Origin: Eledone cirrhosa
Lineage: Eukaryota
Direction of reading: 5' to 3'
NCBI GenBank assembly: GCA_964016885.1
Contig: OZ024743.1
Coordinates: 157,852,001 to 157,916,000 of the forward strand
DNA length: 64,000 bases
The stretch's first letter is position 1. Each line of letters starts with the position of its first letter. The notes under the pieces were generated by a model. That model searched no databases, was not told the DNA's origin, and was given only the letters and a program-made list of their open reading frames with translations. Of the stretch, positions 805 through 51,900 are shown piece by piece. The translations under genes and the position numbers were made by a program.

Positions 805-1050
805 ACTACCTCCCTACGGATATCTGACGCTGTACACCAGGTCCGAACACGGAAGAGCCGAACTCCCACTGTCATCGCCTCCATCTCTCTCGCCCTGCCC
901 ATCTCTCTGTATTATGAGCAAATGGAGTCCCATGTGCTGGCCGCCCCACGGCCCCGGTGGACACAGAATGGAGAAGGCGTTTCCTCGGAGGATGGTAAGG
1001 GAGATGCGTTGGAAGAGCCATTCCATCTCGCGAGGCTCACACATGCGGTT
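805..1050 (-). mobile_element. 3' fragment of CRE-type RLE non-LTR retrotransposon
   Basis: Translates WLFQRISLTILRGNAFSIL, the QRxSxxxxRGNA C-terminal motif of CRE-clade restriction-like endonucleases; 3' region homologous to 49012-49100. Confidence 0.75.
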
Positions 1051-1098
1051 AGCCAGCTATGGTGGTAAATAGTCTGTGGTAAGTGTGGTAAGTAGGGA

Positions 1099-1684
1099 GG
1101 TATGTCAAATTAATACTATAGAACAACAACTGTATCATACACACCCTATATATTTCCAGGAGTACTTAGTACCTGTGGGGATATTGATCTCTTTTTATAT
1201 ATTCTCCGTTATGTAGAGAACAAATCCTTTGTTTTATTTAGCTGCTATTTTTAGTGGCGTGATAGTCAACACGTCTATGTTTACTTCCGCTTCTACTAGG
1301 GGCTGGTTCATGCACAGGTCAAGTCTACGGCCTCATTCGATCCCGTGCTAGCTGGCAGGTGGCAATATATGTTGCCGTTCCTGGGACTTTTGTCCTAGGT
1401 AGGGAAAATGCTTTCTGAAGATCTGAACATTTCCATTGGAAGTCCCTAGGATTTCCAATCTTTTGTGAAGTGAAACCGTCGGTAAAAGGAATAGGTGAAT
1501 ATTTAAATTATATTTTTTTATTTATTTTAAAAAATTGTTTGAATTTGCTTGCTCCGCTTATCTCAATTTTTATAGTTCTGGTATGTCAAATTAATACCAT
1601 AGAACAACCACTGTATCATAGACACCCTATATATTTCCAAGGGTACTTAGTACCTGTCGGGATATTGATCTCCTTTTATATATA
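1099..1684 (+). mobile_element. Terminally redundant non-coding HHR element (retrozyme-like), monomer ~481 nt
   Basis: ~100 bp direct repeat 1099-1200 vs 1580-1684 (ggtatgtcaaattaatac...gatattgatctc), one HHR between them, no credible ORF, ends in a TA run. Confidence 0.75.
1411..1488 (+). ncRNA. Type I hammerhead ribozyme motif, intact core
   Basis: CUUU-CUGAAGA(1415-1421)-U-[stem II with inner hairpin AUUGGAAGUCC/GGAUUUCCAAU]-U-GAAAC-CGUCG-GUA(1482-1484)-AAAG; stems I, II and III all pair. Confidence 0.85.
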
Positions 1685-1694
1685 GTCCAGAAAT

Positions 1695-1745
1695 AGCCGT
1701 CCGACGGCTTGAACTCTGCCGTCGGGGTCATACTTTTTCCTATTT
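1695..1745 (+). other. 5'-truncated 3' half of an HHR element (stem III plus GUC)
   Basis: ACGGC...GCCGUC-GGGG then ...cttttccta and (TA)n; same family as 4522-4582. Confidence 0.5.
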
Positions 1746-1879
1746 TTTTATATATATATATATATATATATCGGACAAACGGGACGCCGTATGGCGGACC
1801 GTTTTGCCGAGGAAGAATCTGTGTCTAGAGGAAACATGCTAGACATATTACCCATTTTTACATGAAGTATATCCGTAGC

Positions 1880-2200
1880 ATTCTACACATCTGAAGGCGG
1901 ATAACATTCCCTGACACTGTGATTCAGCAAGCCAAACTCCTACGCTCATGCAGAAGATTTTGTTAAGATGTCAATAGCGTATACCAAAGTGGCTTCTGTA
2001 TGGTGACCACTGTCCGGAAAAGCGCGCTATTTGGAGAGGAAAGAAGTGATTGAAGGACTTCCTAAAAGAATCTGTAAAGCACCTCAATATTGTGGTTGTC
2101 TCTTGATAGCTACTTGCCTAAACTGACATACTTGGTGCTGTAGATTAAGAATGGTTTCCAAATATCTGGCCAAAAATTAGTACTGAGAAGAAGCATTCGT
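1880..2200 (+). pseudogene. Degraded RTE-clade LINE 3' ORF fragment
   Basis: Broken frames give RIPKWLLYG and LKDFLKESVK, matching the RTE RIPKxLLYGEL...RFKD motif. Confidence 0.55.
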
Positions 2201-2985
2201 GCCATGAGGTTAAAGCTACCAATACCCGAACTTTTACCCATGTATATGTCTCCTATATGTAGGGTAGCAATTCTGGTCTATTCACAGACCAACATTGGAA
2301 AGGAGAAAGTTGGAATTCTAGTATTACATTCATTTCGTAGTTGTAGCAATCACCTTATACATAAGTATTATTACAAGCATTTGCATCGAGATCTTTTTAA
2401 TGATGTCTACTGAGGAAACTGAAAAAAGTTAACAATATGAAATTTCTTTAAATATTCAAAGATTTTATACAAATCACCAATGATTTTATCTATTAGAATG
2501 GGATTGATATCATTAGAGATGTTTGTCTTCTATATCAAACCAGTACATACTGACTGCCTTGCTGGGTAATATTGTTTCAATATATCATTACGCAATCTTA
2601 ATTTCATCTGTTTAAACCTTTTTTGGGTAATTTACTGTTATCCTGCTTACTCTAATGCAACTATTTTGTTTACAAAAGATTCAAATACGAATTACTGGTG
2701 CGAATTAGAAACAATAAGGTTTTAAGGGATATATCTATGCACTACTGGACCTGTAATCTTTTCCTTGTGTCTCAGAACTAAATTATAACAGCAATAAAAT
2801 GTTAAGTGTAGACATGTGTTTCATTTCAATCTTCAAATTATTTAATTCTTTGTCGTTCAAGACTGTTGGCGCTGCCTGGCCGAATGGTTAAAAGATTCGC
2901 TTTGCAATCATTAGGCCCTGGGTATGATAACACTGCGAGGCATCTTTGGCATGCATTATTTACCATAGCTTTATAGCCCTTGCCA

Positions 2986-3106
2986 TTCTGAGTTCAAATC
3001 CCGCCGAGGTTAACTTTGCCTTTCATCCTTACGGGGGTCGATAAAATAAAGTACCAGTAATCTACTGGGTAATTGCTGGCCTTGTGCCAAAAGTAGAAAC
3101 AATTAT
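2986..3106 (+). mobile_element. Young tRNA-SINE (5'-truncated) nested in an older tRNA-SINE (~2865-3200)
   Basis: B box gagttcaaatcc, core gcctttcatccttacggggtcgataaaataaagtaccag, tail aaagtagaaacaatt; attatttaccatagct occurs at both 2955 and 3102. Confidence 0.8.
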
Positions 3107-4154
3107 TTACCATAGCTCCGGGTCGACCCATACCATGTAAGTGAAACTGGGTAGATGGAAACTGTTTAGAAATCCGAACAACTTGAGCACTCATCGTCAA
3201 AACGACGGAGATCCATTCTTTGGTTTCAATACTAACATGGTAGAGGAAATACAAACCAATACTGTCACGTTGCTGTCATGTAACTGTTGCTGTACTTTTG
3301 TTCTTTTAGTTGTTGATTTTTGTTTGTTTGTTTCTTCCTTGCAGTTGCTGTTGTAAATGTTATTAATGTTTTTTGTATGCAACCATTATGATATCCGTGT
3401 GTTTACATCAAAACTAATATCTGTATTTTCTTAATACTCTTCAATCTTCATTATTGCCATTTCCTTTTTTAATCAGCAGCAGACTTGTCTTTAACAAGGA
3501 ACCCTATAGAGCTACAAGCACATAAAAATTACTTACTCAGCGTGTACCCATTATTAGGGTGCAGCATTATGTCGATCCTGCTTTCTCATTGGTGGTTTCC
3601 TGTTTCGTGTTTTAGACGCGTAGTAACGCAATTAAAAACAACTATTTTAGGACTAGTGACCTGGGGTGAAGGCCACATACCAATTTTTATTCCGTCGTAT
3701 TTTCAGTGCTTTTAAAATAATTTTTGTCAGGGATAAACACGCATTTGGGCATATGCACGTATGGACGTACATGTATGTATGTGTGTGTGTGTGTGTGTGT
3801 GTGTGGATGCAAGCACGTGTGTGATATGAATTTTAAACTTATGCGTATGTATGTATACATAAAATGATATATGCAAGTATACATATATAATGATTTCCAT
3901 ATGTATAGTTAAACAGATGCACTTCCAAAAAGGGAAGTCTGATCAAAGATTTATGGTGACTTATGTACTGAAATACCTTTTAAGTGCTGTAAATTTCAAT
4001 GCATTTACATATTATTTGTCAGTGAGGAAAAGGCTATTGCATAGTCTAATTAGCTTTTTTAGATACGCAGAGGATAGAATTAATGTTTTCCTTTCGTTTT
4101 GTCTTGTTTTAAGCTAGGAAAAAGGCAGCTTCAGATGGATTAGTGTTCAGAAGC

Positions 4155-4786: not shown

Positions 4787-5172
4787 GGGGCGGTGGATTG
4801 GCAGTATCGGTAGAGAGTCGGACACCATGCTTTGAAGTATAGTGTCACGTCCCTTTATGATCTGAGTTCAAATCCCGCCGAGGTTGCCTTTCATCCTTAC
4901 GGGGTCGATAAAATAAAGTACCAGTAATGTACTGGGTAATTGCTGGCCTTGTGCCTAAAATAGAAACAATTATTATATTACCCTTGCGGTGGATTGGCAG
5001 TATCGGTAGAGGGTCGGACGCCATGCTTTGCAGCACAATTACGTCACTTTACGGACTGAGTTCAAATCTCGCCGAGGTTAACTTTGCCTTTCATCCTTAC
5101 GGGGTCGATAAAATAAAGTACCAGTAATGCACTGGGTAATTGCTGGCCTTGTGCCAAAAGTAGAAACAATTA
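4787..5172 (+). mobile_element. Two head-to-tail full-length tRNA-SINE copies (4787-4972, 4986-5172)
   Basis: A-box-like tggcagtatcgg, B box gagttcaaatcc/ctc, shared core and tail. Confidence 0.9.
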
Positions 5173-6485: not shown

Positions 6486-6664
6486 CTGGATTTCTCGTGA
6501 TATTCCATTCGGAATACCGTTATTTTCCTAATGAAACTGCAGAAGGGACATTAAAGTAAGTAACGATTTTTTTCTTAACTTGTTTGCCTTTTCCATATTT
6601 GATATATATATATATATATATGTATACTGCCTAAGCCCCAATCTTAAAACTAGTGGATGGTGTC

Positions 6665-7270
6665 ATCGTTCACGCAACATAACTTGGTTTACGTCTCCCC
6701 CATTACGCTGACGTCACAACACCAATTGGGAAGATTTCCTTCAAACATTTCCCACCACACCATCGCTACCACAATATTTTTAACAAAAACACAGTCGTGG
6801 TTCATTACAGCACCGCACCTAACTTCGCACAAATAATCACGTCCTCTAACACTGCAAAACTCAAATCTAATAGATCCCTCTCAGACCTCGGTAAAGGAAA
6901 AACTAGGCCATGTAATTGCACGGAAAAAAATCAATGTCTGCCCATTAAACCACAAATGTTGGCAACGGAACCTCGTGTACATGTGCACTGTCACGACCGA
7001 ACATACAAACAGTCAACATCGAATTAACTGCCTGCGAATTGAAGACAAGATTCTACCAACATCAACATACCTTTAGAAACCCGGTCCGCGATAACATTAC
7101 CTAGGAACTGAATTAGAGTACCTTGACAAAGGCCAAACCTTATATAGAAGACGCCGCCCGAGTAATTTATGCTCCGAAGAAACCATCCAAATTTTGTTCG
7201 GCAAAGAACAACTAAAAGGATGAACTCGTAACTTCGTGTAAACACCTGATTTACAAAACGTACCTCAACT
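6665..7270 (+). pseudogene. Penelope-like element relic: RT thumb/linker plus C-terminal GIY-YIG endonuclease (Hydra-clade-like)
   Basis: RNITWFTSP..PIGK..KHFPPHHRYHNIFNKNTVVVHYST.PN, CNCTEKNQC (CxCx5C linker), NLVY, ELKTRFYQHQHTF; frameshifted; starts just after a TA run. Confidence 0.8.
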
Positions 7271-8520
7271 TCAGACCGTCTTACGAACTAGGAAGGTAAG
7301 ACTATTTTCCCAACATCTATTGTGCACATCCGCTCTGGCATATACACCCTTAGGTAAACACAGTACATTTGCACACACAATTTTGCCTCCACACAGATAC
7401 ACACCTACGTCCACACAATACAGGTACACACACGAGCATGACTCCACCTACATTTCACCTGCAGATCCCACAAGACCATATATGAAGCCAGCACCTAGAA
7501 TGACACCCAAATTTAGCGCTTACATAAACACCTGCGCTGACGGGGCCACATACAGAAGCAGCTCAATGTACACCAACCTGACCCACACATTCAACTCTTA
7601 AGCCATACAGGATTACTCCTAAATAGGTTCGCACCACAACACCAAACCAATAGTGGCGTTAAAACGACATCCCGACACACTTTATTTATATGAATATCTA
7701 ATTGCACGCGGGCAGTCGCCTCCCCAGTACAGACACTCAAGACAAACTTAGACCTCCTATACTGGATAATAAATAAATAATAATTATCCATACCAACACA
7801 CTTTTTCACAACAAATACAAAAATGTCATCATCAGTACCCTCAAACAACTGCTTACACACACACAAACCCACATACATACAAGTGTACTAAGTACTTTAT
7901 ATATACACACATACGCAAACACACCATCTACATACATACGCCTTTTGACTCCGTAGTACTAGGATTCATCTAAATTAAAACATTAACATTACTCCACCCG
8001 TAGATTAAGGTATTTTAAGTGTTCCGCAAAACAAACAGTAATAGTTACAACAATGACTCAAATTAAACACACTCTCTGGCATACATAGCCACCCACGACA
8101 ATCTTAGGCATACTATATGGCAGTACGAAAATATAATTATTTCAACACCACACACGCATACCTCTAGGACGCCAAAGCCCCACATACATACAAATATAAT
8201 AAGTGGCATATGCACACATATTCGCACCCACAACTCCACACTCCATAGTATTAGAACTCATCTAATTAAAATGTGTGTGTGTGTTCTTTTTAATGCATAC
8301 TTATATCCGTAATTTACGGTAAATTAAATTTTTGTTTAGCAAACAATAACAAATACAACAAAAAACTCGAATTTATACACCTACTAACTCGAAACTACCG
8401 ACTATATGATCTGTGATCTATTAAGATAACTAATAAATAGGTTCTTTCGTTGATAGATATATTCGATTTGATAGGGTGAAAGCAGCGATTCTTTGCTTAA
8501 ACTTTAATCTGTTATATATA

Positions 8521-9162
8521 TATATATATAAATATGTTATAAGGAGTCGTGGCCCGACGGCTGGGCTCTTGCCGTTTCAACAGGCAGACTGATTGCCAAA
8601 GGGCTCTCGGTTAACTGGCCGTATCACCAGGGGCGTGGCCAGTCCATATAAAGGTATAAGCTGTCCTTCCAAGTGTAAATTTTCCTTATAGGATGTTGCA
8701 GAAAAAGTTTTAGAATGAATTGATTGTATTTTATATATACAGATACACTTATACACATGTTTATATATTTTATATGTTTATGGAGTAGTTGTGTGTGTTG
8801 GTGTGTAGCTATGCAAGCGTGTATGTGTGTGTTTATGTGCGCATCTCTGTCTATATGTATGTTTCCTTAATTATGTGGGGATGGGTAAGATAGAAGCATT
8901 GTTAAGCAGATTTATGGGGTTGGGTGTAAATGTGTCTACTACTAGGCATATCGTTCACAATTTGCAGACACCAGAGCCAAGGAACTGACGCCTATAAGGA
9001 AAATTTACACTTGGAAGGACAGCTTATACCTTTATATGGACAGGCCACGCCCCTGGTGATACGGCCAGTTAACCGAGAGCCCTTTGGCAATCAGTCTTCC
9101 TGTTGAAACGGGAAGAGCCCAGCCGTCGGGCCACGACTCCTTATAACATATTTATATATATA
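8521..9162. mobile_element. Foldback insert in (TA)n: ~170 bp inverted arms (8521-8692 / 8991-9162) with ~300 bp spacer
   Basis: Arms differ at about 3 positions; both end at the same base next to (TA)n. Confidence 0.9.
9049..9131 (+). ncRNA. Type I HHR-like motif (A6G variant); mirror copy on minus at ~8551-8634
   Basis: GCCC-CUGGUGA-U-ACGG...CUGU-U-GAAAC-GG...CC-GUC-GGGC. Confidence 0.65.
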
Positions 9163-9477
9163 TTATGAAAATAAACCAAAGAAGCCTTCAATACATCAAA
9201 AGTCTTTATTAGCAACAATGTATGTACACTCCATATTCTTCTGTGTTTTTGGCTTGTATTGGCCGATAGTGCTTCTTATAGCTTTAATTGCCCTGATGAG
9301 TCCTTAATAGGACGAAACATTGTTGGCTAATAAAGACTTTTGATGTATTGAATGCTTCTTTGGTTTATTTTCATAATTCTTCGGCTCTGTTTAATTACAT
9401 TGAGCTATACCTTTACTGTCATTTCTATAATACGAAGAGGGTGTTTAACTCCAACACACTCTAGTATTTTAATTCGT
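9162..9477 (+). mobile_element. HHR element with a 5' inverted copy of its own post-ribozyme segment, in (TA)n
   Basis: 9162-9220 is the reverse complement of 9318-9377; ~100 bp tail follows; TA runs on both sides. Confidence 0.85.
9290..9327 (+). ncRNA. Canonical minimal type I hammerhead ribozyme
   Basis: GCC-CUGAUGA-GUCC UUAAUA GGAC-GAAAC-AUU-GUU-GGC; stem I extends further (cuuua/uaaag). Confidence 0.9.
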
Positions 9478-16000: not shown

Positions 16001-16949
16001 TTATATTTTTATGTATTCTTTCTTCAAATCATTTATTACGTGATGGCATTTGAAGAAATTACTATTAATTTTATATGATCATTATTACAACGTACTTTCA
16101 CTGCATAGATGAACATAGTTACGAGTAACTAGCGCGCACGTGAGTATGGTGAGTATGTATATGTGGTGTGTGTGTGTGTGTTTGTGAATTTGTTGTTTTT
16201 GTTTTTTGCTACAATTCATTGGGCTCTTTTCGTGTGTTTTCGTTCTCATTGTATCGATAACATTGTACGAAACACTTGTATAAGTCCAAGTAAAAAGTAA
16301 TTTCCTGCTGTGTTTATGTCTTAAATGTGAGATCTTCGTTATATATTTATCAGTTACTGGTATTACTGTTCTTGTTTTGTTTTTTCTTTTTGTTTTCTCA
16401 CCACAAAGAAAAACTTGTGATTTCCATATTGAACTGTCCCACAAGCTCGACAAAGCTAAGCTAAACTAAGCTCATTAAAGCTAAGGAAAATTGCATTTCC
16501 AGGATTTCGGAAAGACTAAAATGAAGATATTACAAAAACGAACAACGACGTTTTAGGTTAAAACAACAAACCACAAGGTAATGCAAGAGCAGCAATACTT
16601 ACAACTAAATATCATCATCATCATCGTCCACGTCGTTGTCATTGTCATTAGAGCCTCAAATGCTACCACAAATAACAAGGGAACATTTACGTCACCGTGT
16701 GACTGGCTAGAAATAACTGCCAAATCTTGAAATTACATACTAACATCTTGAAAAAGGAGAATATATTTATGGAGACCGCTAAAAAAAGGGATTTTTTATA
16801 GAAGGCATTTGAATATACGTTAATAACACATAAAATATATTGCATTACTCATAAGGTTTTTTATGTATGTAGGAGAATAATATACAGATCACACACACAC
16901 GCATCTGTGTGTGTGATCTGTATATACCACTCACTTTACAAGAGTCAGT

Positions 16950-22826: not shown

Positions 22827-23117
22827 ATATATATATATATATGTAAACGGAAAAAATGAAACGACAATTCATTTCCCACTCTTAGTACGGCTGTTACTTA
22901 AATATAAGTATGTATCCGTACATACATATATGTATACAGACGTACAGTAGTATGTATATAAATATATATATATACATACATGCACACATATATATATGTA
23001 CATATGGATTGACCGAACATTTATTATAATGCTCGGTGTGTTTGTAAACAAACATCCCGTATTAAGCCGTAGTGTCTAGCAACCATCGTTGCTCGTTTGT
23101 TCAACACTGACAAAGGA

Positions 23118-23160
23118 ACGCTGTACTAGTTTCAAGCTTATTAGCTATCGTCAGCAACGT
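23118..23160 (-). ncRNA. Minimal type I HHR, intact core
   Basis: ACGUUG-CUGACGA-U-AGCU AAUA AGCU-U-GAAAC-UA-GUA-CAGCGU. Confidence 0.88.
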
Positions 23161-23468
23161 ATACCTTCCTGCCAGATGATTGTCGATATATATATGTACA
23201 TATATATATATGTGTACATGTATGTATATATATATACATACTACTGTACGTCTGTATACATATATGTATGTACGTATACATACTTATATTTAAGTAACAG
23301 CCGTACTAAGAGTGGGAAATGAAATTTCGTTTCATTTTTTCCGTTTATCGTTTTCGGTGCACCCGACCGATTAACCCACTCGATATACAAATTGGGCTAC
23401 TCAGCCGTTAATATGCATAAGGAAAGTATATACTTTCAGACGTTCAATCATCTAGCAGGAAGGTATAG

Positions 23469-23507
23469 GTTGCTGACGATAGCCAATAAGCTTGAAACTA
23501 GTACAGC
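23469..23507 (+). ncRNA. Minimal type I HHR, intact core
   Basis: GUUG-CUGACGA-U-AGC CAAUAA GCU-U-GAAAC-UA-GUA-CAGC; palindromic stem III ACUAGU. Confidence 0.88.
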
Positions 23508-23714
23508 GTTCCTTTGTCAGTGTTGAACAAACGAGCAACGATGGTTGCTAGACACTACGGTTTAATACGGGATGTTTGTTTACAAACACACCGAGCATTA
23601 TAATAAATGTTCGGTGAATCCATACGTACATATATATATATGTGTGTGCATGTATGTATATATACATACATACTACTGTACGTCTGTATACATATATGTA
23701 TGTACGTATACATA

Positions 23715-23761
<47 letters not shown>

Positions 23762-23764
<3 letters not shown>

Positions 23765-24204
23765 AAAGTTTTATATAAAATTGTTGGGTTACAACAAGTA
23801 AATATTTTATAACTGATATAAAGCACTCGACAAGTTTTGGAGTAGATATACGATATTAAACAAATGGAAACTATATTTATAAAACCATATTTATTTCATT
23901 ATAAATATTTCGGGGATACCATATTAAAAATATGGCATGCCTTCTTCAGATAAAATACAATATATAAACAGTTCTATAAATAATTTTGACGTACCATAAA
24001 TATTGACCAACCGTTATGTAAGAAGCTGGTTTTCTTACATAACGGTTGGTCAATATTTATGGTACGTCAAAATTATTTATAGAATTGTTTATATATTGTA
24101 TTTTATCTGAAGAAGGCATGCCATATTTTTAATATGGTATCCCCGAAATATGTATAATGAAATAAATATGGTTTTATAAATATAGTTTCCATTTGTTTAA
24201 TATC

Positions 24205-24209
<5 letters not shown>
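23762..24209. mobile_element. Foldback insert in (TA)n: ~178 bp arms (23847-24024 / 24032-24209), 7 nt loop, one-sided tail
   Basis: About 2 mismatches between arms. Confidence 0.9.
24101..24160 (+). ncRNA. Type I HHR motif (mirror copy on minus at ~23896-23955)
   Basis: CUGAAGA(24107-24113), stem II AUGCCAUAUU/AAUAUGGUAU, GAAAUAU-GUA; stem I is weak and AU-rich. Confidence 0.7.
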
Positions 24210-24239
<30 letters not shown>

Positions 24240-25765: not shown

Positions 25766-26287
25766 TGTGTGTGTGTGTGCGTGCAAGTATATAAATATGT
25801 GTATGTGTGAGCGTATGTGTGTGTCTATACTTTTCTGCAACTATTCCTTCTTCAGATTGTTTAAACGATCACCAGATTTTAATAGTCATAAATATGTTTA
25901 GCATTTTTACTGTATGGATTATGAAGCTGTCCCAATTCACTTGGTACATATGTTGCTCCGAGAATAATTGATATAGAGTAATGGAATATTTTTAGATACT
26001 GGATCTTTAAATTTCTGAACAATAGTCTGGACATATCTCCTTTACCTTTCATTTTTAACCATGTTAGTGTCATTTAATTACTCCAACAGAACAGAGTTAT
26101 ATTTTGTGATGTCAAATAACAATATCGCATACATTGCTCTTTAATTTGTTTGCTGTTCCTCAAATATTTTCCACTGGTCTTGATTTTTTCGTGTGTGTGT
26201 GTATATATATAGAGAGAGAGATACTTGACGGACATGATTTTTGACAGCGGTAAGAAATTTGTTTTCTTATATCAACGTTTAATGGGC

Positions 26288-26415
26288 TTCCACTGATGAT
26301 TTATAAGTGCCCACCTAAATATATTCTTACATGAGAATATATATTAGGCTTCTACATAAACTGGAAACATTCTCCCAAACCTGTAGAAAACTTATAATGA
26401 AACAATTGTTTGGAA
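26288..26415 (+). ncRNA. Type I HHR with ~100 nt stem II domain, inside repeat 26222-26600
   Basis: UUCCA-CUGAUGA-U-UUAUAAG...CUUAUAA-U-GAAAC-AAUU-GUU-UGGAA; homologous to 46578-46700. Confidence 0.88.
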
Positions 26416-27649
26416 AGATACTTTAACTTTAATTATATCTCATAAAATAATACAACTGGTTTTTCCACATTATACATATTGTTAGCACCCCAAACACTTA
26501 AATTGGGTTTATATTTTAATATAACCTAATGTTTGTTGAGTGAGATGGTTACCAGTCAGAGTTTAGCTTTAAACTATCTCTGTTATTGTATTAAATATAT
26601 ATATATATTTATATTGTCGAAGCGTTTTTTTCTGTATGTTTACTTTGTTACTTTTAATTCATTTCGTTTGTTATCCCACCAAGCCTCATACCTCATATGT
26701 ATTCTTTTGGTTTGCATATATATATCATATATGATTACATTCTGAAGAGGTGGTTTGCATTCTTTACATATTGTCAGGTGTTGTTTGTTGTCTTTTGTGA
26801 AAAATATATTTAATGGGGATTTATATTTCCTGGTCGCACGGTGGCAACCTTTAAGGTTCGATGTGACAAACTTGGTTGTATACAATACATGGCTTTTGCA
26901 TGGTTTGATTCTAAGTGTCTGGAGTTGTTGTTGGTTTGGAGAGGCGGGGAAATGTTTTGTTTTGTTTTTTCAGTTATCTATGCATGATCTTTTTGGTGAT
27001 CTTTTTCTTTGTTTTTTTCATTTTCGCATTGCGCTTGAGAGCATTTGCTAAAGTCCCTTGATTTGTGGTAATTTAATTGGACACCAATTCCGGATATATC
27101 ATTTCATATTAGAATGATAGAAGATTGTGTGATAGCCTTGATCAATTCATTTTTTATGCTTAATATTTAATTATTCGTTTTAATTACGTGAGCGTCGTTT
27201 TTTTTAAATTTAAACAGATTTCAGTTGTGATTATATTTAAGGTTGTTTACAGCTTGAACGATTTATATATATTTAATACTGTTTGGGTTTCACCAGTGCT
27301 TGGGCATACATAATGTATTATTAATGTACAAATACTCACTGATATTTTCTGGAATGTTGTTCGGTTCATTTGAATTCTGTTTACGTGTGTATGTGTGTAT
27401 GTATGTATGTATGTATGTGTGTGTGTATGAATGTATATATGTATTATGTTTGTATGTATGTATGTATTTATGTATTTATGTATTTATGCAATCATTTATG
27501 TAGGTATGTACGTACTTAAATATGTTTGTATGTCCGTACGTACATACGTATGAACGTATGTGTGTATGCATATATGTACGCATGTATGTACGCATGTATG
27601 TATGTATGTATGTATGTATGTATGTATGTATGTATGTATGTATGTATGT

Positions 27650-28921: not shown

Positions 28922-29680
28922 TCATCCCTTGAATCGCAAGAATGTTTTGCAAATTTTGAAGGTGCCAGCTATCGCAGCCATTTGTAGGCTATGAATTAGG
29001 GAGCTGCACTTTTTGTCCGCAAATCCAAGTTCAGTCATACTTTGGTCTAAGCGGGTTGGTATATAACCCGTAGCTCCAATAATGATGGGTATGAAGCTAA
29101 AGGTGTATCTTGGATACTGGATTTGTAAACTCCTCATCAATGGTCCGTAGATGTCCTCCTTCTCCTGTATTTTTCTGACAACGTTTACATCAAGTGGGCA
29201 GCTGATCTCTACAACAGAACACGTTTTCAATGTGTGGTCCCAAACAACAATATCAGGCCGGTTGTGCTTTAATTTGGTGGCAGTTTTTATTTTCAGGTTC
29301 CACCAGTATTCCTTAGTGCCATCTGTCTCAATATATTCCTCCTCGTTTGTTGTTAATTTTGTTTTCCGAAGTGCGTTCCAGATGGTTCTAGCTATCCCAT
29401 CATGTCTCATGGGGAGGTAGTAGCGAGATGACATTCTTTCGCAGCTGGCAACAATGTGGCTTACATCCTCGATCTTTGTTTTACATAGCCTACATTGATT
29501 GTCAGCTGCTGGCCCTCCTCTTTTGTGCAGCAGATATTTGGTAGGGAGTTCTTGTTCCTGTATTGCATAGAGATATCCCTCAAGGTGTGATGTCATAAAC
29601 TTGTCGGAACTCCATGCCGGGCTTTTTGAGTGGTTTATCCCCTCTATGGTCTGTGTTGTACGCCTCAAGTATCCATGCAC
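28922..29680 (-). pseudogene. R4-type ORF, C-terminal part: CCHC knuckle plus restriction-like endonuclease
   Basis: AIQEQ, CRLC..EDVSHIVASC, RHD, RPDIVVWD, EISCP, K..Y; separated from the RT by a frameshift or stop near 29714. Confidence 0.9.
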
Positions 29681-29713
29681 AACTTTTTCTGTAAATTGGT
29701 CAATTTTTTTATC

Positions 29714-31166
29714 TTATTTGAACATTGAATAGGATCTTCCGATTTCTCTGGGTGAGAGATTTATATCAGGCTTTATTCCATATCTCTCCTCCAGATCAGT
29801 CGCTATTCTAATGATATTTTTTTGTTCATGCTCATAAACCTGGGCAAGATGGTTGCCAACCTTTTTCCTCTGTTGAAGGTGTTGCTTCAGTGTTACTATC
29901 CGGGTCTCATATGTTGTTAATATTGATTTTAGACCCCGGCCACCTTCCTTGCGTGAGAAGTATAGCCTATCCACATCACCATTGATGTTAAAGTTCCCAG
30001 TAACACTAAGAAGTTTTCGAGTTCTAACATCCATCTCACTTAGTTCTTGCAATGACCAGTTCAGCAGGCCAAATGTTGGCGTTAGAATTGGCACAGCATA
30101 GGTATTGTGGGCAATGTATTTGTTGTATGCTGACAGTTCTGATGACCATATTTTCTTTACTCTTCTGAGGTATTCAGTTCTGGTTCTCTCCTTATTTATG
30201 GCTCCATCATATCTGACATTCTCATCCTGTCCAAGATATCTGTAGTTGTCACTTGATTGCAGAGGTTGTATTGTCAGGCCCTTCATATCTAGATTTCTAG
30301 AGGAGGGAACAGCTCTTCCACGTTTTACTGCCAAATATGCACACTTGGACTCACCAAATTTCATTTTGATGTTAGTTGAAAATTGTGTAATGAGGTCCAA
30401 TTGTTTCTTGATGTCATTGATATTTGGCCCATACAACTTCAGGTCATCAACAAAGAAAAGATGGGAGATACTTCTGGGCCCACTTCTTTGTCCACCTTGT
30501 TTCCTGAGTAGGTAAGATAGTGGATTCCGTGAGAGAACGAAGAGTAGCACTGACAAGCTATTACCCTGAAAGATGCCCTTCTGGTAATGTATCTTATCAG
30601 TCTTAACTTGCTCCTTCTCACCTCTAAGGATCAAATTGGTGTACCAGTTCTTGTTCAGGCGTTCAACAGCAGCTACCAATGGTTGTGGGACTTTAGCTAA
30701 CTGTAAAGCCTTAATAATCCACCCATGAGGTACACTATCGAATGCTTTTTGATAGTCCAGCCACACCACAGTCATGTTTCTGCGATTCTTTGTTGTTTTT
30801 TCCTGAATCATTTTGTTGGTTAGTAGGTGATCTATGCAACCCCACACCTCCCTCTTTCCACCAGCTTGCTCAGGTGTTATGATGTTGTTGGTAGCACAGT
30901 GATCCTGTAAGAACAGGTTAAGGCACCCAGTATATAATTTATACATGATGTTTTGGCAGGCTATTGGGCGGTAATTTTTTAGCAAGGGTGGTTTGGCTAT
31001 TTTTGGGAATGAGGAGAGTAGTGGCAGTTGATAACCATCTGGGCAGTTCTTGTGTGCCTTTAATGGTTTCTGTAAACAGCCGTATGAGATCTTCCCGATA
31101 GAAAGTGAAATTCTTCAACCAGTATCCTATAATGAGGTCTGGGCCTGGCGATTTCCTATTCGACAT
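29714..31166 (-). pseudogene. R4-type ORF, reverse transcriptase
   Basis: KSPGPD, NYRPIAC, EQAG, WLDYQKAFDSVPH, GIFQGNSLS, HLFFVDDLKLY, YRYLG; frameshift near 30985. Confidence 0.92.
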
Positions 31167-31322
31167 TTTCTGTAGAGCTGTTTCCAGTATTGACCCATCT
31201 ATGTCATATTGTTTTATCTGAACATGTTGGCAGTAGTCCTGTTCCAGTTCTTTTAGCCAATTAGCTTGTCTGTTGAATCCGTCATCCGTTTCCCATACAG
31301 ATCTCCAGTAGCTCTCAACCTG

Positions 31323-32414
31323 TTATTTTGAAGGGGTGTCGTTTACAGGGATTGAGCTTTTGCCACCGAAGCTGCGATAAACTGATTTAGGATCTCTGGC
31401 AAACAATCTATTTAGCACTTGTCGTTTATGTGCTGTTAACTTATATTTTAGTCTTTCTGTTGTAGCTGTGAGTTGTTGTTTCAACTGGTGTAATTTTGAG
31501 TTCAAAGTTTTAAATTTTGTATCTCCAAATCGTCTCTCTAACTTTTTCTTTAGGTCTTCCTGGTGTCGTGTGAAGTTGCTCTCTATGTTGCATTTCATAA
31601 CGACTGCGATGTGTAAGATACTTCGTCTCAGGGACAAAATTTTGGTTTTTAAATTTCGCATCCACGCTGGTTCAGGCTTTCTGTTTGTATCTTGATTGCG
31701 TGGTTTTAGATGTGTGTTATATGATAGCAATGTGACAGCTGAAACATATAACAAAACATTAAGCGTTTCAAATGTCGTTTCTACACCTTTAGATCGTATA
31801 GCCTTCAGATAATTGCCAGCTATTTCGTTCACCGCTTCCAATTCCAATTTAGTGGGTTCTTTACTGATTCTGGTGTTGTATGGTCTGTCACTCACATTAA
31901 GGCTGTGTATCTCTTGAAACATATCGTTCCATATCACTTGTAGGGTGTCCACAAGTGTTTGGTGCTCTGTTTGTTCAGCCTCGTTGTTGATGTGGTGACA
32001 ATTACTACTAGAGTTAGCTGACCTTTCTCGCTGTTCTTCAGTGGAAGTGGGATGGATTTCAGCAGAATTGTTGGTGAGCTGTTCACTGTTAGATTTAGCT
32101 GGCCATTCTCTTTGTCTGTTAGTGGAGGTGGGGTGGTTGTCTACAAGGGCTGTATTTGTAGTATCACTCAATTCCGTTAGATGTATCAATTTACATCTAA
32201 TGATACGTTTTGCCTGTTTATTTAAATGCTTTGGAGAAAAGTCTAATTCTGGGTGTTTGGAGTTCCATAAAGTGTTTAGCCTTTGCATAAAACCGAACTT
32301 TTGGGCTTCAGATTGTTTGTATGCTTCATATAATAGTTTGTTAAGCTCGTAGCTCCATTGTATACAACGGTTGTAGTTGCGATTTGGTCGAAGGAGACTT
32401 GTACTTTTTGCCAT
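31323..32414 (-). pseudogene. R4-type ORF, N-terminal region
   Basis: 363 aa from ATG, colinear with the RT; contains PAWMRNL and NRLF..DPK segments typical upstream of R4 RT; premature stop at 31323. Confidence 0.75.
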
Positions 32415-33074
32415 GATGAGTTCGTCTATTCACTAATATTTCGTATTTATTTTTCAAAATAGTCGATGATCTTCTTTAAAAGTTTCGACAAAGTTCTGTC
32501 AGAATCAAATTTAAAGTTATTCACAGCCTGGGTAATATTTCTTTTCAGTTAGTTTTTAATTCTACAACTGTGTTTTAAACGTTGTTCTTGAATCGTTTGA
32601 ATCGAGAACAAAAAGAACCGTTACTTAGTATATTCCTTTATGAATGTAATATAGTATAACAACGCTGTATTTATATGTTAAAGTTTATGTATCATTCACA
32701 TAAATAGGTGTTCTACAACTTATTCACAACATATTCACAGTTCAAACACTTATGTTTTTTGTTTCTGAATCGAAAACGTTACTTGTATATTTCTTTATAA
32801 ATGTAATATAACAACGTTGCATTTATATGTTAAAGTATATGTATCGTTCATATATCATAAGTGTATGTATCGTTCATATAAATAGGTGTTTTACAACACA
32901 CTTACAGTTCAAACACTTATGTAGAATTATTGTATGTAATCTTACCGTGTAATGTAGCTCAACTTTTTCCAATATATGGTATGTTGCCTTCATGTAAGCT
33001 GTAATTACACACGTCCGATTATCGGGCACTGACCACAACGGCCGCCATTATATGTATGTATGTATGTATGTATG

Positions 33075-43163: not shown

Positions 43164-45811
43164 TTAAATTACAAGCTACCACTTCACTCGCAAGGTTCAG
43201 ATCAATCCGAGGTTACAGTAGAAAACACATGAGCATGGTACAGCACAGTCAGAGTCTAACTTGGAAGCATAAGGTTGCGAAGCGAACTTCATACCCACAT
43301 GACTGAGCCTATCAACATCATCAAGCATTCTGTTCGTTTATCTTCATGGTATAACTCTGCTAAAAGTGTTCAGTAATCTTTCGTCCTGTTGATAACAACT
43401 ATATCTTGTCGTGTTCTTCTTATCGTGTCCACAAAAGTGTCGGCTACAAAGCTTGGCCAGATGTGGTTCTGCCACACAGAACACATTGCTGTCCTTTCTC
43501 ATTAAACTCTGCCAAGTCCAATGCTGTGCAGGGGTATTCCAGCAGGGGGCATATCAGCAGGTGTTGCGTAGTCTGTGATTCGACACTACAGTCACACACA
43601 ATGTTCCCATCCTTTAAATATCCCCTTTTGTCTTAAAAAAAACATTCTATCTAAGGCTGCCTATAACTGAAATGATGGTCATAATAGTTTGTTGGGATTT
43701 TTTCTATCCATGCTTCCATAGATAGCAGTTTACTGTTCATCGTGAAGAGAGATGCCCCTGATCACTTGGTCTGTGCTACATTACGTACACAAAAATAGGT
43801 TCTGTAGCATTTGTTTTCACCGAACTTCAATCAAAAGGAATATCAGCATTGTGGCATAAAAAGAGGCATATGGGATCATTACATTTTCCAGTTAAATATT
43901 TGACCCTAATAACTGACCAGAAATTTGTTGTTTCTCACTAAATAGCAATTTAAAGCGAAAAACATTTAGTGATAGAAAGTGGAATTAGTGACTTATTCAG
44001 ATAGTATTCAACCTCAGCCTGGTAGACTTAATGCTACATTGACGCTTTACCTCCCACCCTCTCTCCACTCTCAAGAATAACACGCATCAGTACATATTTT
44101 TCTAAACCGTACAAATTGCATAAATTGCTGTCATTCAAATATAACTACATTTTATACGAAGAAGAATTTGTAACTTGCAGCAAATTAAAACATCAGGTTA
44201 ATCGACCATCTAATGCAAAATGTATCCAATCAATTCCATCGTTCAATCGATTAAACACATTTGAAGGAGCCACTGCAATGTCCGCCTTCTAATGGTCGAT
44301 GTCCGCTGTAGTGGTTGATGTAAATATAGTAGATTTCCTTTAGCATATCCATGTAACGATATAACGTCTGCTAATGTTTTTTTATTCTGTCTCACTGATT
44401 TATTTTCTCCATTTGCTTGACAGGTTACGCTGGTACAACTTATTTCCAAGTCTTTAAAAGTTAAATATTTCATGAAAAACTATGGAATTACTTCCATTTA
44501 CTCTATACAAAGTCAGTCTACAGTAACAATGAACAAGAGAGCTTCTGTGTGTTCTTACAATCCACTAGAAATAGCAGTCAAGTTATCTTGGAATCACATC
44601 CTACCGTCATGGGAAAGGAAAAGACATATCGAAACACATTCAATGATGAAGTACTTCTAATAAGACGGGATAGTTATTGCTTCAGTTTCATTGGTCATAG
44701 GTAAGCAGGGTACATCTGGGGCCAAACAACAACAGCCGATAATAACCAGTGTCAGTATTCTGATGTCTTACTACATAATCTCGTGGTGTGCCTACAGCTG
44801 CTTGGAACGACTTTTCGTCGAATAGATATGTTTTATTCACACGACCTTTCCCGAAAGACATATTATCGAAGCGATCTTTCGTCGAATAACTACGATTAAA
44901 GTTCCATCCATTAGAATGTTTTGTCGAAACAACTTTGATTTTAGTTATAAAATAATTTTATAAATATATTATTTTGTAGAATAATTTTTTGTTAACAGTG
45001 ATAGGATTTGTGATTTATCGTCCTTAGTTAAACAAGAAAAATGCATTACGCTGTAATGAACAAACGATTACACAAGATAGTAATTAGTTATTAAAGTGTA
45101 AATGATCAATTGATATATTACCTACTATCTGTAGCACTTATCAATCGGCCAAAATGTAAACAAACAATCTATTTTTAGAAACGATCGATAAAGCTTAAAT
45201 TACTGGAAAAATTCGTCAGCCTCGCTTTGTTGAAGGTGGTAAGCACAGCCCTCCGATATATAACAAACGAGAGTTTGAGTTCCACGGGCAACGCTATTCA
45301 ATTTTTTTCCGTTTCCATGGACATATATGTCCAATTTGTTAGACTATTTGTCATAGTCAAAAGCGTGAGTTGAAAGTAAATTAACACGATTTCAAAATAC
45401 CAGCTCAATAGTTCGAAATATAGTTTGAGTACATTCTGGACGATTGAAAGGCTGAAAATAATGGAAAGATTTGTCAGCCTCGCTTTGCTGTAACCGGCAA
45501 GCACAGCCCTCGGGCATACGGCAAACATGTTCGACGCGCACGGGGACACTGTCCCCATGTTCAATCTCCAGCGGCATAATTAAAAGCGTGCGTTGAAGCT
45601 TTTAACTTTGTTAACATAAATGTTTAAAATTCTCATCTTATACTTTAACTCTCTTTCTCTCTTTCTCTCCCACTCTCCGTTCGATTTGCTGTCATATCTT
45701 AACCCCCGCAAAAATGTTCACGGCTACCTTTTGCGCTGAGAATAGTCCAATTTTACGAATATTCATATACACTCATCGCTTCAAACCTTTTCAGTTAATA
45801 TTATATATATA

Positions 45812-46132
45812 TATAATTGTTTCTACTTTAGGCACAAGGCCAGCAATTACCCAGTGCATTACTGGTACTTTATTTTATCGACCCCCGTAAGGATGAAAGG
45901 CAAAGTATATAATATTAACTGAAAAGGTTTGCAGCGATGTGTGTATATGAATATACACAGTATCGGTAGAGGGTCGGACACCATGCTTTCCAGCATAGTT
46001 ACGTCCCTTTACGATCTGAGTTCAAATCCCACCGAGGTTGACTTTGCCTTTCATCCTTACGGGGTCGATAAAATAAAGTACCAGTAATGCACTGGATAAT
46101 TGCTGGCCTTGTGCCTAAAGTAGAAACAATTA
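45812..46132. mobile_element. Inverted tRNA-SINE pair (45812-45905 -, 45958-46132 +) enclosing an inverted copy of flank DNA
   Basis: Both SINE tails face outward into TA runs; 45906-45953 is the reverse complement of 45759-45806. Confidence 0.88.
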
Positions 46133-46146
46133 TATATATATATATA

Positions 46147-46873
46147 GTGAGTTGGAAATTGGTCGGAGTATCACTAATAGCTTTCTCCGTTTATGTAATT
46201 ATGTATTATACTCTTGGTGCAACAGACATGAACTATCTCGATATAAGGTATGACTCTCTTTGTTTATTTTTTTATATGAATATTGATTGTTTTGTTCCTG
46301 TATCTCATGTCTCTTATTTTGCCTGAGAAAATATCTCTATGTGTCCTTAAACAGTACACACATATATTTATTTTTTCATATCCAATTGAGTTCTTCGCAC
46401 GAGGCTTGAATTCTTGTCAGAGTTCAATGACCTGCGTGTATATTATTTTTTGGCGGTAGCCTTCTCCTCCCATTTTTCAGGACAGTGTGAGATTTTCTTT
46501 CAAACTGCTGGACTTACAGCTTAACAATCGCTAAATATTGATATTGATTTAGTTATTAATATAAATATTATTGGGCACCCACTGAAGATTTATAAGAGTC
46601 CACTGGCATAAGAATCCATTGATCTTACACAAACTTCTACATAACTTGGTATAATTTCACCCACCATGTAGAAATCTTACAATGAAACGATTCGTTTGGG
46701 AAATGAGTTATTTAATATATCTCATATAAAATAATACAGCCAATTATCCACACAATACAATATAGTTAGCACCCCAAACGTTTAATTGGGAATATACTCC
46801 GGTATTTCCTAATGTTTGTTGAGTGAGTTGGAAATTGGTCGGAGTATTGCTAATAGCTTTCTCCGTTTATGTA
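46147..46873 (+). mobile_element. Terminally redundant HHR element (retrozyme-like), monomer ~676 nt, in (TA)n
   Basis: gtgagttggaaattggtcggagtat...ctccgtttatgtaa at 46147 and 46823; one HHR; no credible ORF. Confidence 0.8.
46578..46700 (+). ncRNA. Type I HHR with long stem II domain
   Basis: CCCA-CUGAAGA-U-UUAUAAGA...UCUUACAA-U-GAAAC-GAUUC-GUU-UGGG; covaries with 26288-26415. Confidence 0.88.
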
Positions 46874-47639
46874 AGTATGTATATATATATATATATAAAA
46901 GCATATTACCCGACTGCTTGTTTTGGTACGTCCACCAATAATTCACTGAATCACCTTCACTATATATATATATTTGAAATAGGCAAATTTGAATATATGT
47001 GAATAGGCAAATGGATCACGTGGTATATGGTTTAAGCTATATTCTGATCTAAGCTATGGCTGTGTCTATTTTTGAAGTGGTATGAATTTGGTTATGAGTC
47101 GTCTGTCTATATTATCCTCTGGATCAAAAGACAAGACTTGTCAATCTTGCTTTATGACCCTCGGAACACATGATCGAAGCTTCAGAATAACAAGACTGAC
47201 TCAGCCTTAATAAAAAAAAAAATACTAATGTCTTCTATGGTATTGAGTACTCATGCTCGTAACCGTCAATTGTTCAATAATATGGATTATTTCCTTCACA
47301 TAAACGGGTGTTACATACAATCATATATCAAAATGTACTGTAGTTTACTTGCACCTTTTATATGTGCAAATATTTTTTTCTTTATCTTTTTAACGTTTAT
47401 TTTTACCGACAATTTGTTTGGTTCTAGGGCTGTAAAGAAAGGGTATTCAAACAGAAATTTCTTTTGTTATTCTAGTTAACCTTTTTCACAACCAATCACC
47501 TTTCGAATTTCAAGAATGTCTTCATATTTTTATAGTTAACCATATGGTGATCATCTGCATTATATGTATTGTCGAGCTGCATTCTTTCCTTACGAATGCA
47601 GCTCGTTATTATTGCATGTGTGAATCTACGTTTTGACTC

Positions 47640-49004: not shown

Positions 49005-51900
49005 AATCCGTATGGTGAGCAAATGGGGTCCCACGTGGTGTCCTCCCCATAGCCCCGGCAGACAGGATGGAGAAGGTTTTTCCCTGGGGGATGGTAAGGT
49101 CATACCGTCTGACCTTTTGCCATCCCCTCGGACCAGCTCCTCTGGCTCGAGCTGGGAGGGGAAGCCTGCAGCGTCCAAGGCTTGCTTAATGACCTCGTTG
49201 AGGGCAGCATGACGTGGAAGGCGGCCGGCACTGGGAAAGCGGGTGGAGTCCGAATGAGTCCACGGTGGATCCACAGCGACATTTATGTGGCTCGCAGATC
49301 CGGAGTCCAAGCCTCAAAAAACGCCGATGCGCAGGCTATCGATATCCAGCTGCGTGCCAGTGGAGAAGGAGGGCAAGGCATGGAACCAGGCATCCCTATG
49401 GGGTTTGGAGGCCACGCAGTGACAGGCAAGGCGGTGCTGGTCGAGCTGGCGCGTGAGTCTGTCTGAGGCCACGCTGCACTGGATGGCATTCCATATGCTT
49501 TGGGGGGACTTGAGGTCAGCAGGGGGAGAAGGAGGAGGAACGTCTACCGGGTTAAGTCCCAGCCTGTCCAACGTCTCACAGGCGACCTCACGTTCCCTGA
49601 ACACAGAGGGTTCTATTGTGTTTTGGAGAAACCTGCTAACGAGGACGCGGCATGAGGTTACCGATGAAAGAAACGCCGGGAAGGCCAGCGAGATCGGGGA
49701 TCGGAGGCCAAGGCCGCCAAATCTGACAGGTAAAGTGGCCTGTTGCCATACAATGTCGGCAAACCTGACGTTGCATATCTCTTCAACTGCCACTCGGATA
49801 CAAGTATCGTGGTCAGCGAGGAGAGATGCGTGGCTGTAGCACGGAGTGCTGCGAAGGGTGTAGAGGAGCTTCGGCATGGCGAAGCAGTTCCTCAACAGGA
49901 AGAGAGCTGGGTGACCGTCGATCAAGCCCAGTCGGCTCGTGAGGGTCTAGAGTTGTTGGAGCCTAGACCTGATGGTGGAGCGGATGCTCGGCAAATGGAT
50001 CGGTGACCCGAGGATGAGGATATCCTCTTTGGAGGTCATCTGTACCTCGTGGAGAATGGACCACACGTCCAAGACGGAGGCCGCAAAGCTCTCAGCATCA
50101 TAGCTGACATTCACCACCTCCGACTTGGACGAGTTGACCTGGAGGCCGATTCCCGCCAGGGCAGGAACCACCGATTGAAGGTCATGGCAGACAGTCTCCA
50201 CATGCCCGCCCAGCGTAGCATCATCCAGGTACTAAACGTTGAGAGGAGCCGTGATACTCCGGGAAATGTGGTTTATACCAAGGGCAAACAGGAGGGGACC
50301 CAGAGGGTCGCCATGTTGGACCCCAGTGGCCGAAGGTATGACCGTATCAGCAGCAAGGAGCATGCTCGGGGCTCCATATGACAAGTAAGCCAGTGGGTAG
50401 GCGGATGGGGCTCGGGTGAGGCATTAAGCAGATGGTCCCGACGTATGCAGTTAAAAGCATTCCTCATGTCAAGCTTGACAATGAGGTGCATGGAGTCTCT
50501 GGTTTCCTGTTCCGATGGGCAGCTATTGAAGAACTGCCTGGTTGCATGTGCGGCCCCCTCACAGCCACCGGACATGTCGACAACCAGTTTCACTGGACTG
50601 AACTCCTCACCCAGTTCAGGTGTTATGGACCTGCAGACCACCTTAGCAGCCAGCCTCCGGAAGACATTGCCCACAGCGTTGGGGCGTATCCCGCCCTCTT
50701 TCTTCCTGAGAGCGGTCAGGCTAGCCGAAAAAAATAGGCCTCGGGCGTAAGGATCCAGGGCACCATGGATAAGCCTATTGGTAAGTCCCACAATTGCACT
50801 CAGAAGGTTGCGCCCGGCCTCAGCGGAGAGGGGGGATAGCAACTCCATGAGGTGGCCTGGTTGGAGACCATCAGCACCTCCGCTGCTACTAGCTGGGAAG
50901 GACTTGACGGCAGACATGATGTCTGCGTCGGAAGCCACAAGGAGCAGGTGGGGGTATGGGTTGGAGGTCAGCGGGTGGCTCAGGGTGCTTGAGTCACAGG
51001 GCAGCCAGAACATCCTCGGTGTGTTGGAGGACAGTGTCCTCTGAGGCAACCACTCTGACTGTGGCCTTGACATCACCCATGATGATTTTGGCGCTTACAC
51101 GGTCACGCAACCGCTTGGAGCTGGCCTAAGGGGTGGAGGATTGGAGACACCCAAGAGCAGGGCTTGTGGCGTCTTTCAGCACGCTTGGAATGGGCGTTTA
51201 CCCATTGGCCTTGATAAAAGCTGCTTTCGACCGGCCGCCTAGGTCAGTGCCACAGCTGGGGAGGCCGAGGGTGAGTGGGGCGAAATAGAAGAGGCGCTCT
51301 CAGTCGCTGGCTCGATTGGAGTCCAGAGCACTCTCGATCGAGGAAGTGAGGGCATCGGCTACCGGCACCCGGGCAGCTCTCGGGATCCTGAACGTAATCT
51401 TCCGGAGCCCCCTGGGCTGAGTGATGTTGACCGGCGAGGCTTGGGTATCAGGCAAGCTCGCTGTCTCATCTGGTGGAGTGCCAGATGGCCTTGACTGGGC
51501 AGACGATGGGAAGAGACAGTTTCTGCATCTCCACGCTGCGAGGGCACTGGAAACTCGACGCGTCAAGCCAACACAGGTGAGGTGGTGGAAGCAGCCGCAC
51601 CCCGAACAATTACGGCCCCTCTTCCGTCTGTTCGTGGTGCTGCAAGTGCTGCAGATACCGACTGGTGGGGATGGAGGATGGGGCGTGGAGCCGGGGACTG
51701 GAGCACCAAGTGGCATCAGGGGTGAGTGGCTGGTTGTCACCAGTGTAGGTGCTAGGCACAACTGCACGTGGGTGGAAGAGAAAGTGTTGGTATGGGTGAG
51801 GCCTCATAGCTCACCTACATCGGATATGGAGGCGACAGAAGACAAGATAAAAGAGAAGGGGGTTGCATGGAGGGGGACACACATGAAAGTAGAAAGTTAG
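49005..51900 (-). mobile_element. Degraded near full-length CRE-type non-LTR retrotransposon (PHD finger, RT, truncated RLE)
   Basis: SGGADGL.P.HL, KKEGGIRP.AVG..RRL, KLDMRNAFN, GVQHGDPLGP, YLDD, LPVRFGGLGL, RH, GKRSDG; GC-rich relative to host; many frameshifts. Confidence 0.88.

Follow-up and report, generated by a model that had tools for sequence, protein, structure and literature searches.

The window, by which we mean the whole 64-kb stretch of DNA that was analysed, is AT-rich, full of microsatellites and interspersed with ORFs of broken non-LTR retrotransposons, and so has the look of animal DNA. At 46147 begins an insertion of ~730 bases, the focal element, which is bracketed by (TA)n runs. 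Its features, together with a relative elsewhere in the window, are as follows.

46131-46146 (no strand): left (TA)n target, where a dispersed repeat of ~180 nt and very high copy number (45958-46133, family D20) ends
46147-46203 (+): 5′ copy of the terminal repeat (tail), starting with GTGAGT, the splice-donor consensus
46204-46523 (+): non-coding, T-rich interior, present in multiple copies in organisms A and B at a depth far below that of the 3′ end
46519-46546 (+): probable deletion junction or hypervariable patch, placed by a depth dip, contig ends and the start of homology to the relative at 46547
46578-46700 (+): predicted type I hammerhead, with the predicted cut after 46696
46589-46683 (+): predicted branched helix II of 95 nt, with a basal stem, a decayed arm IIa and a conserved arm IIb
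46768-46775 (+): AGCACCCC block, kept in the relative and weakly resembling the GCAC(T/C)(C/T) motif found 3′ of the hammerhead in Hydra PLEs
46808-46827 (+): 20-nt block, identical in the focal copy and the relative, containing an ATG and running into the GTGAG of the tail start
46823-46879 (+): 3′ copy of the terminal repeat (tail), with a fixed 3′ end 183 nt past the predicted cut site
46880-46897 (no strand): right (TA)n target, a TA run
26222-26590 (+): 5′-truncated relative, with a hammerhead core at 26293, a 99-nt branched helix II that folds cleanly and a tail at the 3′ end only

The two tails form a direct repeat (46147-46206 and 46823-46882) with a period of 676 nt and 57 of 60 positions identical; the mismatches are at 46172/46848, 46173/46849 and 46199/46875. 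The final few bases blend into the TA run, and the repeat length is therefore given as 57-60 nt. The longest exact repeated run was 25 nt, and in all 20 shuffles it was 8-13 nt. The 676-nt unit has a GC content of 33% and is non-coding, its longest stop-free stretch being 59 aa and the longest from an ATG 50 aa. These results agree with a preliminary description of the locus as one full unit plus an overlap between TA runs with no ORF; the start it gave, 46147, held, and the end, 46873, fell 6-9 nt short. The adjacent mismatches at 46172-46173 set CA against TG, and reads favour G at 46173 (168/169 in run X9), which would fit a single CpG that decayed separately in each tail copy after insertion. 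No tandem array was found within the window, and the focal locus carries a single hammerhead. The ~180-nt repeat adjoining the element on the left presumably resembles octopus SINEs, and an inverted partial copy of it (45818-45905 vs 46042-46128) lies directly left of the element. Near-perfect local inverted repeats also stand beside TA runs at 8520-9163, 22844-23716, 23843-24213 and 45759-46128.

The hammerhead motif named in the preliminary description has all of the invariant core bases: CUGAAGA at 46582-46588, GAAA at 46684-46687 and a GUU cleavage triplet ending at 46696. Helix I pairs 46578-46581 with 46697-46700, and helix III (46687-46695) is short and near-palindromic. Helix II starts from a U.U base, continues as a basal stem of eight positions that contains an A.C mismatch (46592/46680) in the focal copy, and then branches into arm IIa, decayed in this copy, and the conserved arm IIb (46634-46673). 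An Rfam scan up to E 1 returned 112 matches, none of them a hammerhead at the focal element. In the relative, the 99-nt helix II folded unaided into a basal stem opening onto two hairpins (z −5.86, matched by 0/200 shuffles), and the whole motif gave a z of −4.85. The helix II of the focal copy reached a z of −1.51, with 13/200 shuffles as good, and its whole motif folded no better than shuffles (z −0.69, 40/200).

Between the two copies, four pairs (in helix I, the top of the basal stem, helix III and the inner part of arm IIb) change on both sides yet stay paired by a hand count on these two copies, and two pairs are broken in the focal copy relative to its relative. RNAalifold, given the same two copies, recovered only arm IIb and a spurious three-pair stem, with 0/12 pairs compensatory. 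The A.C mismatch of the focal copy corresponds to an A-U pair in organism A (T at 46680 in 129/144 X9 reads and in 2,861/3,726 of X1 depth) and to a G-C pair in organism B (G at 46592 in 3,980/4,250 of X4 depth, with C kept at 46680), the variants at the two positions being unphased on single molecules. When the focal helix II insert was given the majority base at 46680, it folded like that of the relative. From these comparisons we take the long, branched helix II to be real at the level of the family and decayed in the focal copy.

The length of this helix, 95-99 nt, exceeds the 11-31 nt found in 25/25 comparison motifs, which were hammerheads from 16 fetched Hydra-type loci, obtained with a search that allowed 110 nt. 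It also lies far outside the motif spacers given by Craig et al. 2021 (PMC8557442), 7-17 nt, or 35-50 nt for half cores, and outside the hammerhead table of that paper, in which Hydra helices II are ~11-25 nt and any row reaches at most ~50-55 nt. Cervera and de la Pena 2014 (PMC4209133) described PLE hammerheads as having a short helix I and a long helix II of 7-8 bp, acting as dimers and being weakly active. Because helix III is short and near-palindromic, the focal hammerhead would most likely cut slowly and as a dimer or with the help of a protein. Our literature search, mostly outside the subscription journals, found no natural hammerhead of type I whose helix II is branched and of comparable size. 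Rfam missed a type I motif in which the conserved, branched helix II is ~97 nt long, and PLE families scored as hammerhead-less may hold motifs of this kind. The predicted ribozyme is the unusual part of the element; the rest of its layout is ordinary for PLEs.

Other hammerheads and mobile elements occur in the window. Compact hammerhead motifs were found at 9293 (+), 4415 (+), 23154 (−) and 23473 (+), on short TA-flanked or inverted-repeat units, and the only Rfam hammerhead match in the window (9287-9331, 29.1 bits) was below the gathering score of 34. At 1099-1683 (+) lies a second ORF-less element with the same layout, unrelated in sequence to the focal one. It has a direct repeat of 97-104 nt (93%) with a period of 481 that starts at G-GTATGT, and a single hammerhead at 1415, whose 50-nt helix II (z −3.2) has a U.U base; its 3′ end lies in a TA run and its left flank is not TA. 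Two broken non-LTR retrotransposons were found at 28922-32429 (−; Pfam RVT_1, E 1.7e-24) and 49314-51094 (−; E 0.06).

The diverged relative that the preliminary description had placed at 26222-26600 was recovered at 26222-26590. Its positions 26257-26590 match 46547-46873 of the focal copy at 240/339 nucleotides (71%, E 3e-43). It begins 71 nt before the hammerhead core with a microsatellite on its left, carries a homologue of the tail only at its 3′ end, and terminates in a TA run at the same element position as the focal copy. Contigs and reads from two organisms (A and B) cover the entire focal element at strongly uneven depth. At 46800 and over 46218-46238, just past the 5′ tail, depth was 111,170 and 464-3,118 in run X1, 36,160 and 291-991 in X4, and 734 and 13-14 raw reads in X9, so that the interior stood at 0.4-3% of the depth at 46800; read depth does not equal copy number, and if the 3′ part is better conserved, some of this gradient could come from that. 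With mates summed, the raw depth in X9 was 529-697 over 46730-46837, 13-86 over 46190-46513 and <1 over 47000-47250. The 3′-heavy shape was common to these three runs, with run X5, which had 118 records only, left out. The read mapping took in the neighbouring high-copy repeat, and all 15 listed joints (a further 1,414 were unlisted) fell there and are uninformative on tandem copies. These results show a fixed 3′ boundary with frequent 5′ truncation, a PLE trait, and the depth profile is that expected when copying starts at a fixed 3′ end and often stops early, and not that of permuted circles or of satellite arrays.

One X4 contig (record 11) spans 46153-46413, from the tail into the interior, indicating that the tail-interior joint is not private to the focal locus. 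Among the matches listed (24 of ~281,000), ten contig pieces lay inside the element and none crossed 46519-46527: two ended at 46523 (26-28 unlike letters left), one ended at 46518, and one began at 46527, preceded by 193 unlike letters. Between 46502 and 46519 the depth in X1 dropped from 4,537 to 131, and the drop in X4 was milder (3,221 to 1,415). The depth dip, these four listed contig ends and the start of homology to the relative at 46547 suggest that 46519-46546 is probably a deletion junction; a variable patch would look alike. The interior upstream of it, 46204-46523, is probably the 5′ leader or an intron of the parent PLE.

Hydra-type PLEs were available for comparison by way of another insertion in the window. 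A 5′-truncated, frameshifted remnant follows a TA run at 6620-8250 (+), with a long AC-rich 3′ region and no intact hammerhead, and its ORF remnant at 6698-7101 matches Hydra-type proteins (tblastn E 8e-18; profile 52.6 bits). An assignment of this remnant to Neptune was rejected because RWK/RWR and DKT-type motifs, which Craig et al. 2021 list for Hydra, are present in its relatives. The criteria applied for the Hydra clade were RWK and DKT motifs, a CxCX5C linker without CCHH, insertion into (TA)n and a canonical compact hammerhead. The remnant led to Hydra-type proteins, and these to 16 loci of such elements (L002-L017). Their PLE ORFs, hammerheads and TA runs sit in contigs of several bacterial MAG records, and the contigs are most likely animal host DNA binned by mistake. 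Pfam named 0/8 relatives of the ORF remnant, a protein word-index search with the remnant and P0044 gave nothing new, and locus scans with P0143 alone or in viral contigs gave none.

One of these loci, L011, is a complete Hydra-clade PLE, in which a (TA)n run (2276-2319), a 66-nt repeat, the ORF, a hammerhead at 4730, the 66-nt repeat again and a second (TA)n run follow one another. The two repeats (2317-2382 and 4814-4879) are 98.5% identical and span about +43 to +105 nt past the cut site. Two Hydra families among the loci each end at two fixed sites 63-68 nt apart, at +48/+53 or +116 nt past the cut site in one and at +50 or +117/+118 nt in the other, and the L011 repeat covers the corresponding interval. 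The focal tail lies further out (+127 to +183 nt), and an interval bounded by two fixed 3′ ends was seen in those families; in the focal family, the second, tail-less end would fall at 46822. In L004 and L008 the upstream repeat is longer (391 and 151 nt, respectively) and takes in the ribozyme, showing that terminal redundancy of other lengths also occurs. A Hydra tail of ~63-68 nt, bounded by two fixed 3′ ends, can accordingly flank a full element on both sides, and with this geometry the internal-initiation model could be tested on genomic sequence in a simple way beyond the Poseidon clade. The CUGANGA-U ... U-GAAAC form of the core occurred in 9/25 motifs of the fetched loci and, by our own count, in 14/26 Hydra rows of File S2 of Craig et al. 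2021. L004, L010 and L011 carry the motif G(A/T)GCACT(C/T)T twice, in the tail and 10-25 nt before the start codon, a duplication for which we found no description in the accessible text of Craig et al. 2021.

The focal element shared no sequence with the fetched loci. No significant match to it was found among 150 Hydra-type proteins, with two profiles made from 120 full-length proteins of this type, or in Pfam. Six motifs of the focal family were absent from the accessible supplement of Craig et al. 2021, bar one chance 9-mer, and gave 0 matches in viral, prokaryote-genome and metagenome contigs. A looser ribozyme pattern matched once, in a ligase- and protease-coding contig, by chance. A likeness of the interior to a Hydra N-terminus, seen by eye, failed against the profiles, and a likeness of the element to the leader at the Hydra ORF start was not above background (7, 36, 110 and 272 of 332 tiles scored as well).

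We consider it likely that the focal element is an old, decayed, ORF-less insertion derived from an endonuclease-bearing, (TA)n-targeting PLE, with the tail at both ends. The parent is probably most like the Hydra clade, to which the ribozyme form, the target and one short motif point; among the PLE clades, the U.U form was compared within Hydra. Given the redundancy of L011 and the two fixed 3′ ends seen in other Hydra families, a PLE tail standing at both ends is the best reading of the repeat. The preliminary description had named a fixed terminal repeat as a competing case, and of this the 3′ boundary was observed directly and the 5′ boundary follows by analogy only. Published PLEs offer parallels: 5′ truncation, partial tandems and a 30-40 bp tail at either end (Craig et al. 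2021), and a solo Penelope ORF between two direct 34-bp repeats (Schostak et al. 2008, PMC2377424, Fig. 1A). Reverse transcription was found to start at two internal sites bounding the tail, with uncut RNA as the main template (Frangieh et al. 2024, PMC11167929).

Such an insertion could have arisen as follows. An autonomous PLE would supply in trans an RT/GIY-YIG protein that binds a transcript exceeding one unit in length, made from a tandem or partially tandem master copy or from a circle; Arkhipova et al. 2013 (PMC3846280) describe the in-trans mobilisation of unrelated DNA by pLTRs. If the in vitro work on Poseidon is a guide, the (TA)n target would then be nicked and reverse transcription would begin at a fixed internal site of the RNA, the far end of the tail. 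The sequence of the focal copy shows that copying then passed the uncut hammerhead, traversed the entire unit and ended where the upstream tail begins, so that a tail was left at both ends. As the depth profile and the relative show, most insertions of the family abort early and keep the 3′ end only. The ORF would have been lost near 46520-46546, in the master or earlier, and the unit would be short because of this loss. The focal copy has since decayed, as seen in its tails, which differ at 3/60 positions, in the A.C mismatch of helix II and in the weak arm IIa. Both copies in the window run through the cleavage site, which implies that the template was uncut or re-ligated; it may have been circular, and circles have been proposed as templates of PLEs (Cervera and de la Pena 2014).

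Alternatively, the element could be a true non-LTR retrozyme with a unit of ~676 nt, whose tandem transcripts are cut and circularised and then reverse transcribed in a rolling fashion, one lap plus 57 nt giving the focal copy. One unit with an overlap, the lack of an ORF and the intact core would all be expected, as would the extension of both window copies past the cut site. The interior occurs in multiple copies in two organisms, and X4 record 11 shows a further copy in which it adjoins the tail; when folded as a circle, the monomer did somewhat better than 40 shuffles (z −2.8). We nevertheless consider this unlikely. The 3′ end is fixed and depth is strongly biased towards it, the window holds no tandem array, the same redundancy is found on the autonomous PLE L011, the depth dip and contig ends near 46520 suggest a non-uniform unit, and the hammerhead is of PLE type and not canonical. 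Hence the proposal in the preliminary description of a permuted copy of a 676-nt circle found no support in the shared 3′ end of the relative, the 3′-heavy depth or the redundancy of L011.

The size argument in that description, that 676 nt lies beyond animal retrozymes (170-400 nt), is dated. Cervera and de la Pena 2020 (PMC7229834) described retrozymes as tandem repeats expressed as circles of ~170-400 nt; Li et al. 2026 (10.64898/2026.07.22.740005) give 51-972 bp for animal retrozymes, with a mean of 650 bp in ray-finned fish. The latter authors required two consecutive ribozyme units and also found solo monomers, and 1/9 of the dimers that they tested cleaved; at the focal locus, a hammerhead in at least two consecutive units was not found. 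Since they derive the class from PLE terminal repeats and regard retrozymes as non-autonomous PLE derivatives, the two readings overlap, and the focal element sits on the same continuum as retrozymes. Its layout is ordinary for PLEs and is therefore no evidence for a new size class of retrozyme circles.

A distinctly unlikely possibility is that the family is a living, ORF-free mobile RNA of ~0.7 kb, in which the branched helix II of ~97 nt would be a working domain and full-length copies would start at a splice donor by way of an excised intron spanning two tandem units. The domain may in that case serve as a tertiary partner for helix I or as a docking site for a helper RT. If true, this would amount to a natural hammerhead architecture that is new and that current models do not see, and splicing would be a means by which the 5′ end of Penelope-type insertions is fixed.

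An excised intron as the template, without these further claims, would be spliced from the GTGAGT donor to the acceptor of the next unit, and cDNA made on the lariat or debranched RNA would stop at the donor. The 5′ end of the insertion is at a GTGAGT, a word with a frequency of 0.5 per kb on the + strand of the window, GTGAG is conserved in the relative, and the T-rich interior contains a pyrimidine tract and AG at 46461-46480. PLE leaders carry introns, and one in the leader of the parent is plausible. The repeat of the second ORF-less element (1099-1683) starts at G-GTATGT, a weak case as GTRWGT is common here (7.3 per kb). At 16100-16600 (+), two GTGAGT donors, one of them directly after an ATG, are followed by ~250 nt of T-rich sequence and a decayed ORF start. 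This stretch is a probable 5′ end of another Hydra element, although its profile match to a Hydra-type ORF was weak (10.8 bits, E 0.043, best of 1,584 frames). However, the donor was spotted post hoc in one or two copies, the L011 repeat does not begin at GT, and the acceptor A at 46479 is G in 1,081/1,108 X1 depth units (organism A), so that we regard an excised intron as a very unlikely template.

An origin of the repeat at the insertion site itself, as a TSD, a local duplication or two nested insertions, is extremely improbable even though retrozyme TSDs are said to exceed 4 bp (PMC7229834), since both flanks are TA and the repeated sequence belongs to the family, with its homologue at the 3′ end only of the relative and high depth in two organisms; this bears out the view of the preliminary description that the overlap is not a TSD.

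Read as a PLE derivative with a tail at both ends, the focal element can be compared with several known systems. Like animal non-LTR retrozymes, it is non-coding, has a low GC content (33%) and a type I hammerhead, falls within 51-972 bp and has a probable PLE origin and a probable PLE helper; it differs from them in being a single dispersed copy with one non-canonical ribozyme, from a strongly 3′-biased family. With the Hydra clade (PMC8557442) it shares (TA)n targets and a fixed 3′ end, although (TA)n insertion is common to Hydra, Naiad and Neptune and is not diagnostic. Further likenesses are a type I hammerhead on the sense strand close to the 3′ end, with U.U at the base of helix II and a short AC...GU helix III, a tail of ~60-70 nt that may stand at both ends (L011) and, weakly, the GCAC motif after the ribozyme. 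In contrast to Hydra, it has no RT/GIY-YIG ORF, its helix II is branched and not compact (95-99 nt vs 11-31 nt), the stretch from ribozyme to tail is longer, and a sequence link to any Hydra family compared is lacking.

Autonomous EN+ PLEs likewise carry, towards their 3′ terminus, a type I hammerhead whose helix III is short or palindromic; their ORF with a telomerase-like RT and GIY-YIG is absent from the focal element, which can thus only be a non-autonomous derivative. Copies of Penelope with 34-bp repeats (PMC2377424, PMC11167929) share the arrangement of one unit with a tail at both ends and, in the model of Frangieh et al. 2024, reverse transcription from a fixed internal site on RNA that the hammerhead has left uncut. 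Their tail is 30-40 nt, whereas that of the focal element is ~57 nt and flanks no ORF, and the Penelope repeat lies at the ORF start, downstream of an intron, whereas the focal repeat begins at a donor-like site. The Clec2 discontinuous hammerhead (PMC6155905) is another natural hammerhead in which one helix holds a large insertion; it is of type III, with a helix I of 150-1500 nt in a mammalian 3′ UTR, whereas the focal motif is of type I, with a predicted branched helix II, in a mobile element.
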